The position numbers were made by a program, and so were the translations under genes. A model generated the notes under the pieces. The model worked only from the letters and a program-made list of their open reading frames with translations. It searched no databases and had not been told where the DNA came from. This document shows, piece after piece, positions 612 through 7,449 of a DNA stretch of 7,449 nucleotides; the first letter of the stretch is position 1; each line of letters begins with the position of its first letter. The stretch comes from a virus (taxonomy: Duplodnaviria; Heunggongvirae; Uroviricota; Caudoviricetes), in the IMG/VR virus record IMGVR_UViG_2671180437_000020. One strand, 5' to 3'.

Positions 612-1280
612 ATGGTGAAATTAATGAAAAAAAACACAGATGATGGGGCTAAAATTTACACACCACTTACCCTAAAGCTTTATGACTGGTGGGTTTTGGG
701 AGTATCAAATTGGCTTGCATGGGGATGTCCTACAAAGGAACACCTTCTTCCACACTTTCTGGAACATTTAGGTAACAACCATCTGGATATTGGTGTTGGA
801 ACTGGGTTTTACCTTACTCACGTACCTGAGAGTAGTCTGATATCTTTAATGGATTTGAACGAAGCTAGCCTGAACGCGGCATCTACAAGGGCTGGGGAAT
901 CAAAAATTAAACATAAAATTAGCCATGATGTTTTTGAACCTTATCCCGCGGCGTTACATGGTCAATTTGATTCCATTTCCATGTTTTACCTTCTTCACTG
1001 CCTGCCTGGAAATATAACTACAAAAAGCTGTGTAATACGCAATGCGGCGCAGGCCTTAACTGACGATGGAACTCTATACGGAGCCACAATTCTTGGCGAT
1101 GGAGTTGTGCACAATAGCTTCGGTCAAAAACTGATGCGCATTTACAATCAGAAAGGTATCTTTTCAAACACAAAAGATTCCGAAGAAGGCTTAACACATA
1201 TACTCTCAGAGCATTTCGAGAATGTTAAAACCAAGGTTCAAGGTACTGTAGTAATGTTTTCCGCTTCAGGGAAAAAATAG
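612..1280 (+). CDS. class I (Rossmann-fold) SAM-dependent methyltransferase, substrate unknown; 222 aa from ATG 612, or 218 aa from ATG 624
   Basis: Motif I LDIGVGTG is encoded at 783..806. An acidic residue ends the next strand (SLISLMDLNE), followed by HDVFEP and FDSISMFYLLHCLP motifs and LTDDGTLYGATIL, in the usual class I order. The pre-motif segment YDWWVLGVSNWLAWG loosely resembles the UbiE/COQ5-type N-terminal region. GGTGA at 614..618 favours the ATG at 624. The gene is visibly AT-rich compared with its flanks. Confidence 0.65.
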   Translation: MVKLMKKNTDDGAKIYTPLTLKLYDWWVLGVSNWLAWGCPTKEHLLPHFLEHLGNNHLDIGVGTGFYLTHVPESSLISLMDLNEASLNAASTRAGESKIKHKISHDVFEPYPAALHGQFDSISMFYLLHCLPGNITTKSCVIRNAAQALTDDGTLYGATILGDGVVHNSFGQKLMRIYNQKGIFSNTKDSEEGLTHILSEHFENVKTKVQGTVVMFSASGKK

Positions 1281-1500: not shown

Positions 1501-1919
1501 GCTACCTGCATCAGGTTGTTTTTTGTTTCTTCCGCCTCCCGGATCCGGAACAGTTTTTCTGCTTCCGTATCCTTCACCCAGGCTGTGCCGTTCCACTTCT
1601 GAAACTCCCCTTCCGGAGATAACCAGGTGACATTTTCCGGTAACGGACCGAGTTCAGAAATAAATAACGCGTCCCCTGATGCCACGTCATAAACTGTTTT
1701 ACCCCGATGGTCTTCAACAAGATACCACGATGCATCATCACTGTTGAAAACAGCCACGAAGCCAGCCGGAATATCTGGCGGTGCAATATCGGTACTGTTT
1801 GCTGGCAGACCTGTATGAGGCGGAATATATGCGTCACCTTCACCAATAAATTCATTAGTTCCGGCCAGCAGATTATAAATTTTTATGGTCCGTGCTTGTT
1901 CACTCATTCTGAATGCCAT
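1335..1919 (-). CDS. tfa: tail fiber assembly protein Tfa (lambda Tfa/orf-194 family), 194 aa
   Basis: At 194 aa it is the same length as lambda Tfa and near-identical along its length to that sequence as I recall it ([53 protein letters not shown]...). Its ATG at 1919..1917 overlaps the upstream stf-fragment stop (TAATG). Stop is TAA at 1337..1335. Confidence 0.9.
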
Positions 1920-2902
1920 TATGCAAGCCTCACAATATAGTTAAATGCGATGTTTTTGACGGTGTTTTCCGCGTTACCAGCAGCGTTAACGGTGATGGTG
2001 TGTCCATGTGAACCAATCGCAACCGAGTGCGTATGCGCACCAATACCTACAGTATGTGCGTGTGCACCTGCGCTTGCAGCAGTACCCGATACAGAGTGCG
2101 TATGAGCGCCTGCAGAAGAAGTGTTAACACTGTATTTAGAATAATCAGGTGCTCCACTTCCCGGAGCACCACTGGAACCACCTGAAACAAATGTCATCGA
2201 ATGGGTATGTGCACCGGCTGAAGCAGCCGTACCGCTAACACTATGGGTATGCGCCCCGGTGTTATTCGTGGATTTAGTGCCGTAATCAAACGACGATGTG
2301 GTTTTCGTACCCAAATCCGTACTGGATGCGCTGGCGCTGTGGGTGTGCGATTTAATGCCGTCCTGTTCCTGAGACAATACGGCACGACCACTGGCGGGCT
2401 TGCCCTTAATCGTCCAGCCACGCATATCAGGGATCACGCCTGACGGATAAGCCACTGCAAGTTTCGGGTATGCAGATTTGTCAAAAGTCTGCCCCTGCAT
2501 CAGGGCATAACCAGACGGAACGGTATCTGATGGCCACGGGATTGGTGCACCAACAGGGTAGCTTTCTGGTGGAATATTTTTCGAGGTATAAACTTCTGCC
2601 CAGTCTTCCTCAAAACCATAGCCATCTCTTGAAGAACGGTAGAACAGACCACCATTTCTGTAATGCGCCTTCATCTGCAGGGTCCGGCAACTTCCGACTC
2701 CGGTATAGAAGTTAACCAGAATATAGCTGTCGCCAGAGCGAGTGACATTGTAAGCGCCTGATTCGGCATTCCAGGGAACGCCCCCATCCGCATCGGCATA
2801 CGTATCCGTTGCTCTTCTGGCAAAAGCAGCAACATGCGCAGCGGTTAAAGTGATATCAGTAGAACCATCAAACGAAACACCAGATATTTTTATTGCTGTC
2901 TG
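1919..2902 (-). pseudogene. stf: 3' fragment of a side tail fiber gene (about the last 327 codons), cut at its 5' end by IS1
   Basis: The frame is open from the IS1 junction at 2902 to TAA at 1921..1919. It encodes the His-rich tip (GAHTHS/GAHAHT/GSHGH) and ends ...[22 protein letters not shown], which matches the lambda Stf C-terminus as I recall it. There is no start codon or RBS of its own at the 5' end, and the first Met is at 2674. Confidence 0.8.
2153..2902. repeat. direct repeat copy A of the stf 3' segment (750 bp), flanking IS1
   Basis: Aligns with 3672..4421 at a constant offset of 1519. I count about 13 mismatches by eye (~98% identity), all within 2411..2750. Confidence 0.85.
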
Positions 2903-2957
2903 GGTGATGCTGCCAACTTACTGATTTAGTGTATGATGGTGTTTTTGAGGTGCTCCA

Positions 2958-3233
2958 GTGGCTTCTGTTTCTATCAGCTGTCCCTCCTGTTCAGCTACTG
3001 ACGGGGTGGTGCGTAACGGCAAAAGCACCGCCGGACATCAGCGCTATCTCTGCTCTCACTGCCGTAAAACATGGCAACTGCAGTTCACTTACACCGCTTC
3101 TCAACCCGGTACGCACCAGAAAATCATTGATATGGCCATGAATGGCGTTGGATGCCGGGCAACAGCCCGCATTATGGGCGTTGGCCTCAACACGATTTTA
3201 CGTCACTTAAAAAACTCAGGCCGCAGTCGGTAA
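2958..3233 (+). CDS. insA: IS1 InsA (transposition regulator / N-terminal part of the InsAB' transposase), 91 aa, GTG start
   Basis: [40 protein letters not shown]... is the InsA sequence. The A6C frameshift motif (ttaaaaaactc) near 3205..3215 precedes the insB frame. Confidence 0.9.
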
Positions 3234-3655
3234 CCTCGCGCATACAGCCGGGCAGTGACGTCATCGTCTGCGCGGAAATGGACGAACAGTGGGGCTATGT
3301 CGGGGCTAAATCGTGCCAGCGCTGGCTGTTTTACGCGTATGACAGGCTCCGGAAGACGGTTGTTGCGCACGTATTCGGTGAACGCACGATGGCGACGCTG
3401 GGGCGTCTTATGAGCCTGCTGTCACCCTTTGACGTGGTGATATGGATGACGGATGGCTGGCCGCTGTATGAATCCCGCCTGAAGGGAAAGCTGCACGTAA
3501 TCAGCAAGCGATATACGCAGCGAATTGAGCGGCATAACCTGAATCTGAGGCAGCACCTGGCACGGCTGGGACGGAAGTCGCTGTCGTTCTCAAAATCGGT
3601 GGAGCTGCATGACAAAGTCATCGGGCATTATCTGAACATAAAACACTATCAATAA
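3152..3655 (+). CDS. insB: IS1 InsB (transposase catalytic part, expressed as InsAB' by -1 frameshift), 167-aa frame
   Basis: [25 protein letters not shown]...HYLNIKHYQ matches InsB. It differs from the K-12 IS1 InsB I recall at two positions (AKSCQRW and YDRLRK). Confidence 0.9.
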
Positions 3656-3665
3656 GTTGGAGTCA

Positions 3666-6600
3666 TTACCATCCACTTCCCGGAGCACCACTGGAACCAC
3701 CTGAAACAAATGTCATCGAATGGGTATGTGCACCGGCTGAAGCAGCCGTACCGCTAACACTATGGGTATGCGCCCCGGTGTTATTCGTGGATTTAGTGCC
3801 GTAATCAAACGACGATGTGGTTTTCGTACCCAAATCCGTACTGGATGCGCTGGCGCTGTGGGTGTGCGATTTAATGCCGTCCTGTTCCTGAGACAATACG
3901 GCACGACCACTGGCGGGCTTGCCCTTAATCATCCAGCCACGCATATCAGGGATCACGCCTGACGGATAAGCAGCTGCAAGTTTCGGGTAAGCAGATTTGT
4001 CAAAAGTCTGCCCCTGCATCAGGGCATAACCAGACGGAACGGTATCTGATGGCCACGGGATTGGTGCGCCGACTGGGTAGCTTTCTGGTGGAAGATTTTT
4101 CGAGGTATAAACTTCTGCCCAGTCTTCCTCAAAACCATAACCGTCTCTTGAAGAACGGTAGAACAGACCACCATTTCTGTAATGCGCCTTCATCTGCAAG
4201 GTCCGGCAACTTCCGACTCCGGTATAGAAGTTAACCAGAATATAGCTGTCGCCAGAGCGGGTGACATTATAAGCGCCTGATTCGGCATTCCAGGGAACGC
4301 CCCCATCCGCATCGGCATACGTATCCGTTGCTCTTCTGGCAAAAGCAGCAACATGCGCAGCGGTTAAAGTGATATCAGTAGAACCATCAAACGAAACACC
4401 AGATATTTTTATTGCTGTCTGAAGTTTCGTAGCTGTATCAGAATTTCCCTTAATCCCCTTAGGCGAATTAAGTGGTGTATTGATCGTCACTTCACCTGTT
4501 GCGTTATTTACAGCAAATGGTCGAAGACCGTTCCAGCCACCGTACTGGTCGCCTTTATCAGTCATGAGCAAGTAAGTATTTGCTCCATCATTTCGCCATA
4601 TGACACCGTAATCGCCTGCAATCATCCTTAACGCGTTCTGACTACGGACAATAACTTCATCATTAGCGTAAATCTTATTCCCGCTAATATCTGACTTACT
4701 CAAAACAGGATACGAACTATAAAATCCATTACCTTGTTTAAAATCTAAAATTAAATTTACAGCAACTGATTCAGAATAAGGATCAGTTGCACCAAATTTA
4801 TAAGTTGTTTCAGCAACAACATAATCAGAAGCAGGTGCAGTAACGGAGAGTCCTTCTTCTAAAAAAACCTCTACGGGAAATGCCCCACCTTCTATATAGA
4901 ATACGCTGTCTACGGTATCGCCTTTATTACTCATCAGAATGGAATGAATAGCGCGTTCCGATGATGAATAAGCCCAGAACATACCACAGGCATAGCTACC
5001 CCGGTCCGTCCAGCCGCCTGCGCAAACAAAACCATTAAACTCACAGTTATTCATTCTGTGATTAGCTGTGCGACTTGGCGTTGAAATGACAACGCGGGAT
5101 GCCCGATGGCTGTCATTCCTTTTTATCACTAACGGATAATATTTACCTTCCTGGACACCCGCCGGGGCATTTACCACAACGTATCGCATCCCCTTTTTCT
5201 GATCCACTTCACCTTTGCTGTAAACATTAATGTTACTCAGGAAGCGGTCCTTGTCGGGAATATCAGCACCGTTCTGGTCTTTCTGCAGACGTTTCTCTGC
5301 ATTGTCATAGGCTGCTTTTACTGCCTTTGGCGTTGCCGCCAGCGTTTCAGACGTGCTGTTGGTCGCACTGCTGAGCTGTACTACCCCCTTTTTCGTCGTG
5401 CTCGCATCCTCAAGCGCCACGGCGGATGCAATATCCTCTGCACGTTTTGCCGCTGTCTCAGCGCGCGTTGCCGCGGATTCCGCCGTACTTTTGCTCTGTG
5501 CTGCCGCCGTCGCACTGCCAGCTGCCTCTGTCGCCTTCGTGGATGCTGTCGTGGCGCTGCCCTTCGCTGCTGACGCCTGTCTGGTCGCCTCATCTTTTGA
5601 AGCAGACGCCGATGATGCCGATGACGCCGCCGAACTGGCTGACGATGCGGCAGCCGTTTTTGAGGATTCTGCACGGGTTTCCGACGCTTTCGCGTTCGTT
5701 TCGGATGTCTTCGCTGCGGAAGCTGACCTCGCTGCTGCGCTGGCCTGTTCAGTGGCTTCGCCAGCCTTCGTTGTGGCTGTTGAAGCAGACGATGCGGCAC
5801 TTTCTGCCGACTTTCCGGCAGCGGTGGCACTGGCTGAGGCCTGCCCGGCACTTGTTGATGCGGCACTGGCAGATGATGCAGCCGCTGTTTTTGAGCCTGC
5901 CGCAGCTGAGGCACTCTGTCCCGCTGCCGTTTCAGAAGACCTGGCGTTCGTCTCGGACGTTTTTGCCGCCTTCGCGGAATTTCCTGCCGCCGTTGCCGAG
6001 GAAGCGGCACTACTGGCGCTTGATGATGCGTTCGTTTCTGATGATTTCGCTGCCTCTTTTGAGGCCGCCGCATCCCGGGCTGAGGTGGCAGCTTCTGACG
6101 CCTTTGTGGTCGCTGCGGATGCAGAAGTGGCTGCAGATTTTTGTGACGCTGCCGCATTCGTTTCTGACGTTTTCGCCGCACCGGCACTGGTAGCTGCCGC
6201 GCTTTTTGAGGACTCTGCAGCGGCAGCACTTTTTGAGGCTTCAGTGGCCTTTGTTGATGCCGTTCCTGCGCTGGAAGACGCTGACTGAGCCGACGTCGCG
6301 GCCTGCCCGGCTGATGTGCTGGCTGCGCGTGCTGAGCCTGCAGCATCAGTCGCATGGGTTGCCGCCTCACGGGCTGATGTGCTGGCATCACTGGCTGACT
6401 TCTTCGCGGCTGCCGTGTTCTGTGCCACCGCGGACGCGTTACGCGCCACCTCTTCCACCATCAGTTCAAAACGGCGCAGTGCCTCAGGACGGGCATCATC
6501 CTCCGTCATGGCACCGAGAAAATCATTCAGCGTACCGGGTCGGGAATCTTCATACACGGTGATGGTCCCGGCATGTGACGGCGGGAATCCCTCCACCAAC

Positions 6601-6785
6601 AGAATAACGCTGTACTGCCCGTACTCAACGTCCATGCTGTAACGCCCGGCTTCATCCGGATTTTCTGAGGCCAGCGTGTTCACCACCACCGTGGTGCTGT
6701 TACGTTTTGCTTTCAGCTGGATTGTGCAGTTCTGTACCGGTTTTCCTGTGCCGTCTTTCAGTACACCTGAAATCTTTACTGCCAT
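3666..6785 (-). CDS. stf: side tail fiber protein Stf (lambda Stf family), about 1039 aa, C-terminally truncated by IS1; likely non-functional
   Basis: N-terminus [26 protein letters not shown]... matches the lambda Stf N-terminal domain. The ATG at 6785..6783 is preferred over the GTG at 6791 and is preceded by GGGGTGA. The frame runs into IS1 and ends ...GSGW-TAA (3668..3666), with the W and stop supplied by the IS1 terminus. About 76 C-terminal residues present in the 1919..2902 fragment are missing. Confidence 0.85.
3672..4421. repeat. direct repeat copy B of the stf 3' segment (750 bp), flanking IS1
   Basis: See copy A at 2153..2902. Confidence 0.85.
5418..6431. repeat. imperfect tandem repeats inside stf encoding an Ala/Ser/Thr-rich low-complexity shaft
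   Basis: Residues ~121-458 are almost entirely A/S/T/K/E, with recurring AAKTSETNA-type units. Corresponding DNA units recur at roughly 5693, 5941, 6029 and 6146. This GC-rich repetitive stretch produces long spurious ORFs in other frames. Confidence 0.6.
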
Positions 6786-6794
6786 ATTCACCCC

Positions 6795-6849: not shown

Positions 6850-7449
6850 TCAGAATTTATAACCGACACCCACGATGAAACCGTCAGTGCGCCAGTCACC
6901 ACTGCCGGAGCCTTCATAAGCAATATCAATGGACACGGATTCGGTCGGGTTAAACTGCACGCCAGCCCCCCACGCCAGAGACGTGTTGCTGTGGCGACCG
7001 TCATCACTTCCGGTCAGCACATCGTGCTTTTTCCCCTTGTTGTCAGTTACGCGAAGATAATCCCCGGAGAAAGTCGACACACGGCTGTAAGCTACACCCG
7101 CCATCGCATACGCGCTGAACCATTCATTCACGCGCACAGACGGCCCCGCCATTACGCTGAACCAGCGGTTACGAACGGAATCTTCATGCCAGCGGGTATC
7201 GCTGTAACGGGTCAGCTGGCGATTCTTGTCTCCTGCATAGCTGAATGACGTCACCAGCCCCAGTGTGTCCGTAAACTCATAACGGTATTTCATGTTAATC
7301 CCGTTCAGATCATCACTGCCGGGGACGTTCGTCGAGGCATGAAGATACCCCGCGCTCAGCGTGGACTGATGTTCAGACGCCCATGCAGGCGCACCGGATA
7401 CGGCCAGACAAATGGCTGCGGACAAAATTGCTGCACAAACTTTACGCAT
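6850..7449 (-). CDS. lom: Lom outer membrane beta-barrel protein (Ail/Lom/OmpX/PagC family), 199 aa, apparently intact
   Basis: Signal-peptide-like N-terminus MRKVCAAILSAAICLAVSGAPAWA. The C-terminus ...DIAYEGSGSGDWRTDGFIVGVGYKF matches lambda Lom as I recall it. The start codon is the last 3 nt of the window, so the RBS is outside it. Stop is TGA at 6852..6850. Confidence 0.9.
   Translation of the reverse strand: MRKVCAAILSAAICLAVSGAPAWASEHQSTLSAGYLHASTNVPGSDDLNGINMKYRYEFTDTLGLVTSFSYAGDKNRQLTRYSDTRWHEDSVRNRWFSVMAGPSVRVNEWFSAYAMAGVAYSRVSTFSGDYLRVTDNKGKKHDVLTGSDDGRHSNTSLAWGAGVQFNPTESVSIDIAYEGSGSGDWRTDGFIVGVGYKF

Follow-up and report, generated by a model that had tools for sequence, protein, structure and literature searches.

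Mosaicism of stf by recombination is already known and is a textbook property of phage tail-fiber genes. Recombination of phage lambda with the Rac and Qin prophages within the stf/tfa homology has been shown experimentally and yielded many different junctions (De Paepe et al. 2014, PMC3945230). The window analyzed here, a whole stretch of 7,449 bp of Caudoviricetes DNA (IMG/VR record IMGVR_UViG_2671180437_000020), holds an ordinary example of this property, and it provides a clean, quantified small-scale case of recombination making prophage tail-fiber genes mosaic. Two copies of a 3' segment of stf, designated copy A and copy B, occur in the window as direct repeats. We consider it very likely that they represent two functional alleles of the stf C-terminal module that existed beforehand and were made mosaic by recombination, and not the remains of a decayed duplicate. 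This reading was tested by span, permutation, pairwise, and four-gamete tests.

The features of the window are collected in Table 1. The lambdoid gene order J-lom-stf-tfa is recognizable, given that lom lies immediately upstream of stf and tfa directly downstream; related loci keep the order of lom and stf and carry J further upstream. The domain layout of a lambda-type Stf, in which an N-terminal prophage tail-fiber domain precedes the shaft, the collar, and C-terminal Gly-rich repeats, is likewise present, with an N-terminal PF08400 match (239 bits) followed by PF21446, PF07484, PF03335, and PF12604. In related contigs, the prophage lies beside yciEFG and the trp operon. The intact stf gene of these prophages encodes 1,115 aa, and this frame is not preserved in the window, where IS1 leaves a truncated protein of 1,041 aa, whose stop lies 5 nt into IS1, and a 3' fragment without a start. 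The longest ORF internal to the fragment encodes 251 aa (1919-2674) and is not preceded by the 5' part of a gene; 11 contigs, which represent several prophage contexts, carry a call of exactly this 251-aa product. Given that one copy is truncated by IS1 and the other has no 5' part, neither stf copy is a working gene here. The stf fragment and tfa share an ATGA overlap at 1919, and the exact Tfa protein is found in 11 contigs beside trp.

Table 1. Features of the 7,449-bp window, with their positions, strand, and basis
Feature	Position	Strand	Basis or remark
tfa' fragment, C-terminal 89 aa	286-555	-	PF02413 partial, profile positions 75-130
Class I SAM-dependent methyltransferase, prophage cargo	612-1280	+	Pfam domains; RefSeq annotation of homologous loci
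tfa, tail fiber assembly chaperone, 194 aa	1335-1919	-	PF02413, 148 bits
stf 3' fragment	1919-2902	-	Pfam gp37_C, Collar, Phage_fiber; without the N-terminal two thirds
Switch interval, A-type (donor) to resident sequence	2058-2151	-	Downstream of copy A
Copy A of the repeat, A-type allele	2152-2902	-	Variable center 2412-2750
Complete IS1, 768 bp	2903-3670	+	PF03811, PF12759, PF03400; insA, insB', terminal inverted repeats
stf 5' part plus copy B, truncated	3666-6791	-	PF08400, PF21446, PF07484, PF03335
Copy B of the repeat, resident B-type allele	3671-4421	-	Variable center 3931-4269; N at 3671 in CYCU01000062.1
lom, Ail/Lom outer-membrane protein gene	6850-7449	-	PF06316, 404.9 bits, full length

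Several further observations concern the neighbors and the shaft of stf. The methyltransferase gene sits between tfa and the tfa fragment, and its exact protein is very widespread. Direct repeats of the tfa 3' ends (D3, 266-462 versus 1315-1511, 88% identical; also 236-264 versus 1286-1314) bracket the methyltransferase gene, an arrangement that matches the tfa, methyltransferase, and tfa fragment annotated beside appY/ompT in E. coli ET474. The stf shaft (5353-6391) is Ala/Ser-rich and consists of degenerate repeats phased at 21 bp, which yield spurious long ORFs of 311, 336, and 255 aa in other frames and on the opposite strand. Prophages with the same lom and stf (L099, L101, L102, L105, L107, L119, and L122; L numbers designate the loci compared) have, just 3' of tfa, a gene for a reverse transcriptase with a TIR domain that is annotated as anti-phage, and in both RefSeq-annotated loci (L119 and L122) this gene adjoins prfC.

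Positions 2153-2902 aligned without gaps to 3672-4421 at an offset of 1,519, defining a 750-bp direct repeat with 13 mismatches, no indels, and no stops. A 14th difference lies at the terminal base of the repeat (2152 C versus 3671 A); when this base is counted, the repeat is 751 bp long and directly flanks the complete IS1. All 13 mismatches (2412, 2453, 2454, 2471, 2549, 2552, 2555, 2575, 2621, 2624, 2680, 2741, and 2750 in copy A) fall inside 2412-2750, a span of 339 bp, and the stretches around this variable center are identical over 259 bp (2153-2411) and 152 bp (2751-2902). The variable tract covers the gp37_C-like and collar domains recognized by Pfam. Read in the stf frame on the minus strand, three codons change a residue, namely T/M (ACG/ATG) in RGWT/MIKGK, V/A (GTG/GCT) in KLAV/AAYPSG, and I/L (ATT/CTT) in SKNI/LPPE; 10 of the 13 changes are synonymous, and 9 of the 13 are transitions. 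An earlier note on this DNA, made from the sequence alone, had reported about 13 mismatches within about 340 bp, identical ends of about 260 and 150 bp, and three residue changes with the rest synonymous, and the exact alignment reproduced each of these figures; the mismatches are neither evenly spread, nor mostly nonsynonymous, nor frame-disrupting.

The clustering of the differences was significant by every calculation. For 13 differences scattered uniformly over 750 bp, the chance of falling within a span of at most 339 bp was 5.5e-4 analytically and 5.0e-4 by permutation, and it was 2.8e-4 to 4.6e-4 when the differences were drawn from population-variable sites only, whether or not these were weighted by diversity. 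Synonymous changes were in clear excess, with a dN/dS of 0.08 between the copies (3 nonsynonymous and 10 synonymous differences). Under neutrality, about 77% of the changes would be expected to be nonsynonymous, and the probability of 3 or fewer among 13 was 6.6e-5, in agreement with the purifying selection proposed in the earlier note. Synonymous divergence was 0.137 in the center and 0 in the flanks over about 102 synonymous sites; by simple arithmetic, flanks as divergent as the center would hold about 13 differences, and 0 were observed.

Both complete haplotypes are present in intact genes of other genomes, outside the lineage of the window. Copy A (2152-2902) is identical to the intact 1,115-aa stf of L103, which lies in a Qin-like context with pin and ynaE, as part of an identical 887-bp block. 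It differs by one mismatch from the stf of the complete genome HNSQ2209 (L002), and its central 356 bp occur exactly in at least eight complete E. coli genomes; the A-type allele often adjoins a pin-like invertase gene. Copy A is also identical over 2058-3006 to L092, a prophage beside bioA/bioB, and this identity includes the same IS1 junction. At 2057 and below, the window departs from L092 and agrees with the resident type, and position 2152 is C, the A-type state, where resident alleles carry A. As read from these boundaries, the imported tract is predicted to consist of IS1 plus 2152-2902, with the switch to resident sequence somewhere in 2058-2151, and the L092 prophage is a plausible donor of IS1 and the A-type tract. 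The same L092 prophage (CYGS01000045.1) carries a Mn-catalase and yciE/F/G-like cargo.

Copy B carries the B-type state at 13 of 13 sites, like the intact genes of L004-L009 and L099-L107. Compared with the intact 1,115-aa stf of the trp-adjacent prophage (L004-L009, L100, and L104), the copy B allele differs at two sites, 3899 and 3903, and these are the only differences of copy B and the sequence upstream of it from L004-L006, L009, L100, and L104 over 3.8-4.6 kb. Specifically, the stf 5' part plus copy B shows 2 mismatches in 3,779 bp to the intact stf of L004-L006 and L009; L008 has the same B allele but five further mismatches, all within lom. The proposal that the copies descend from two functional alleles therefore holds, given that each matches an intact 1,115-aa stf elsewhere (L103 for copy A and L004-L009 for copy B).

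The wider pool of stf alleles was sampled from the 80 best IMG/VR protein matches and about 40 E. coli loci, a non-random sample that contained 67 distinct alleles of the 750-bp segment from other genomes. For a random pair of alleles from this sample, the expected numbers of differences were 8.5, 8.8, and 17.3 for the 5' flank, center, and 3' flank, respectively, and the numbers observed between copies A and B were 0, 13, and 0. Of the 2,145 allele pairs, 270 differed at 13 or more central sites, and not one of these was identical in both flanks; the 10 pairs that were identical in both flanks each showed 8 or fewer central differences. All 13 sites segregate in the sample, with more than 45 haplotypes across them. 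Recombination is pervasive in this gene pool: the minimum number of recombination events (Rmin) was 28 in 653 bp of the segment, and 930 of 2,701 informative site pairs (34%) failed the four-gamete test. The sites at which copies A and B differ are standing polymorphisms, for the most part synonymous, of a gene pool that recombines heavily.

How the pattern arose may be read from unrelated genomes, in which A-type alleles (L092 and L103) already differ from B-type alleles (L102, L104, L106, and L107) at 0, 13, and 2 sites in the 5' flank, center, and 3' flank. This suggests that the mosaic mostly predates the locus and was not made by these two copies. The earlier note had proposed that the two alleles exchanged their ends by recombination; the recombination is supported, but an exchange between these two copies is not, given the same 0/13/2 pattern elsewhere. 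In the scheme that we propose, copy B would be the allele native to the prophage beside yciEFG-trp, and copy A, with its attached IS1, would be an allele in circulation among further lambdoid prophages, including some of the Qin/pin type and one at the bio locus. Short tracts would be swapped between the stf genes of prophages by homologous recombination, and the flanks would be identical because of such swaps, so that the A and B lineages would share recent ancestry in their ends and not in their middle. The 5' flank holds no site that separates the A-type from the B-type lineage, so that shared ancestry there is read only from how diverse this stretch generally is. We infer that the patch arose by gene conversion or a double crossover.

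A second case of the same kind was found among the related prophages. L105 equals L099 except for 12 substitutions at gene positions 2523-2877, which are equivalent to window 3915-4269, and this patch is an independent parallel over nearly the same interval as the center of copies A and B. Short conversion patches over this tract accordingly recur, and the same tract of about 340 bp has been swapped at least twice independently.

The arrangement of the two copies around IS1 is a separate question from the origin of the alleles. A simple IS1 insertion is expected to leave an 8-10-bp direct duplication of the target. The element in the window is complete, with the A6C frameshift motif at 3209 and ends GGTGATGCTGCC... 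and ...GGAGTCATTACC, and it shares 99% identity with annotated copies of IS1A and IS1B. No target-site duplication was found, as the 9-bp flanks TGCTGTCTG (2894-2902) and ATCCACTTC (3671-3679) differ, and the element is thus not a simple insertion. Over 40 bp, the left flank has a high AT content of 65% and the right flank one of 47.5%, the copy B side being GC-richer than usual IS1 targets. Three draft assemblies (L007, L010, and L092), which represent two prophage contexts, share the left junction, 2902/2903. The junction on the right, where IS1 meets copy B, was absent from 5,426 complete E. coli genomes, GTDB representatives, and JGI metagenomes; the complete genomes gave only split, non-contiguous matches to both junctions, and an exact-pattern scan of the GTDB representatives and JGI metagenomes matched neither the left junction nor the right one, with or without the extra base. 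The right junction was seen only in L007, with the N, as GAGTCATTACC[N]TCCACTTCC.

This contig, CYCU01000062.1 (L007/L091; assembly GCA_001283545.1), is the sole public contig with the full arrangement, and it is identical to the window over 7,449 bases save for a single N at its position 3819, which corresponds to window 3671, where the window shows A. Look-up of the exact truncated Stf product with both start codons returned no record. Given this identity, the coincidence of the window edges with the gene-call boundaries of CYCU01000062.1, and the absence of the truncated Stf from the records, the window is probably that scaffold, with A in place of the N.

The placement of copies A and B side by side, with only IS1 between them, is unproven, and we consider it somewhat likelier that the layout is an artifact or a mis-collapsed larger structure than that it is real. 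The tandem of copy B, IS1, and copy A would then be a product of scaffolding or gap filling, joined through multicopy IS1, with the two alleles lying apart in the genome or within a larger unit that is duplicated; this would be compatible with two pre-existing alleles made mosaic by recombination. The one N of CYCU01000062.1 falls exactly where the right end of IS1 meets copy B, and the window edges, as stated, are those of its gene calls. The upstream piece stops one base short of the sole nearby difference between A-type and resident sequence (C/A, 2152/3671), which is expected where an assembly graph branches between two copies present together and would be a coincidence of about 1% for a real IS1 junction. 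An artifact is also favored by the lack of a target duplication and by the contrast between the two junctions, that of copy A being found in three drafts and that of copy B being unmatched in the collections searched. The sibling assembly L010, whose contig breaks inside IS1, has A and not C at 2152 (Ala to Ser in the 251-aa ORF), and this A could be the other branch. L010 also has C instead of T at 1157, and its differences at 2152 and 1157 may be either real recombinant differences or other branch choices of the assembly. Against an artifact, both halves of the window match one trp-adjacent prophage of the relatives at 99.9-100%, so that the simplest placement is in one prophage; several assemblies connect copy A to the trp-side flank; and a single N may survive gap closure of a genuine IS-bridged join. 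Heteroallelic duplications beside an IS in short-read scaffolds should have their junction checked for unresolved bases before they are given an evolutionary reading.

Other insertions in stf were seen among the compared loci. The A-type stf of prophages in the pin/ynaE context (L093 and L095-L098) is cut at one position, equivalent to window 2713, by an element that we take, from its sequence, to be an IS3 left end, and because of this cut the same 251-aa ORF is called there. HNSQ2209 (L002) has IS1 and IS5. Together, the IS3-cut assemblies and HNSQ2209 suggest that stf is a frequent IS target.

A real duplication, in which two alleles met at one IS1 and gene conversion between the adjacent copies homogenized their ends, is unlikely. 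Its origin could be either an adjacent deletion, mediated by IS1, in prophages arranged in tandem, or recombination between a pair of stf genes that were both interrupted by IS1. In its favor, positions 3899 and 3903 of copy B show the A-type state, unlike all other B-type alleles sampled; as the closest B-type site (3931) is only 28 bp away, the hybrid junction is real sequence. Also in its favor, the A-type tract stops in 2058-2151, just past the repeat. However, 38 records of the complete-genome collection contain exactly the same local combination at 3899/3903, in alleles with differences at other positions. Given that the combination pre-exists, conversion in situ is not required, and we rejected it as a necessary source of the C and A at these positions; a local exchange is possible and would be hinted at by at most these two sites. 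Moreover, A- and B-type alleles share the flanks in question in unrelated genomes, none of the 5,426 complete E. coli genomes has IS1 at the second site, and the copy B junction is an N. A single reciprocal crossover of the Campbell type was also rejected, given that the copies are not reciprocal hybrids and copy A retains donor states at 2380, 2384, and 2152. If the layout were real, a RecA-dependent crossover between the 751-bp repeats, which carry two different stf alleles, would remove IS1 and make stf whole again, an outcome that we regard as improbable. The sequence of the restored stf would then depend on the crossover point, and the locus would be either a snapshot of allele shuffling in progress or a switch that turns the side tail fiber on and off reversibly, with a variable outcome.

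Two further explanations of the alleles themselves were refuted. Pseudogene decay, in which one copy would be a recent duplicate gathering random mutations, suits the present state of both fragments, which are non-functional through IS1 truncation or the missing 5' end, but it is very improbable in view of the clustered differences (P of about 5e-4), the 10 synonymous changes of 13, the absence of indels and stops, and the occurrence of every variant state in other genomes and of both haplotypes in intact genes, and the haplotype matches refute it. The earlier note had likewise suggested, from the pattern of substitutions, that decay was not the cause. Equally improbable is that stronger constraint keeps the ends identical or that diversifying selection acts on the center; the center does span the gp37_C-like and collar domains, but in the allele sample the flanks are more diverse (pi of 0.055 and 0.068) than the center (0.026), so that the identity of the ends is not due to constraint, and the dN/dS of 0.08 in the center refutes diversifying selection there.

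The locus recalls several known systems. The DLP12-type prophage end of E. coli K-12 (tfaD-ybcY-tfaX) resembles the window, as seen in the annotated homologue ET474, in having tfa, a SAM-methyltransferase, and a tfa fragment after stf; the relatives of the window, in contrast, sit beside yciEFG-trp and not beside appY/ompT. Switching by Pin/Gin/Cin invertases likewise places alternative tail-fiber C-terminal sequences close together, but the repeats here are direct and not inverted, the window has no invertase gene, and the copies differ by only three residues, so that this is not a host-range switch. With misjoins at IS elements in short-read assemblies, the locus shares the single N at the IS end, a contig end at an allele branch, and sibling assemblies that break inside IS1; here, however, both halves match one prophage lineage, and the misjoin itself is a candidate only. 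As in other IS1 insertions and IS-associated rearrangements, such as adjacent deletions by IS1 or duplications with an IS at their junction, a complete 768-bp element lies in a prophage gene and the junction 2902/2903 recurs in another prophage, whereas the 8-10-bp duplication of the usual IS1 insertion gives way to direct repeats of 751 bp that are not identical, and only one N-bearing scaffold shows the second junction.

The closest counterpart is the mosaicism of lambdoid stf/tfa through homologous recombination of phages with resident or defective prophages (De Paepe et al. 2014, PMC3945230, and earlier tail-fiber work that it cites). The window has the same gene family in the same order, J-lom-stf-tfa, and shares with that system the alternation of short identical and diverged blocks and the many hybrid junctions within the stf/tfa homology. 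It differs in that the evidence here is comparative, the tract is small (about 340 bp, with about 4% divergence), and both partners appear in one scaffold.
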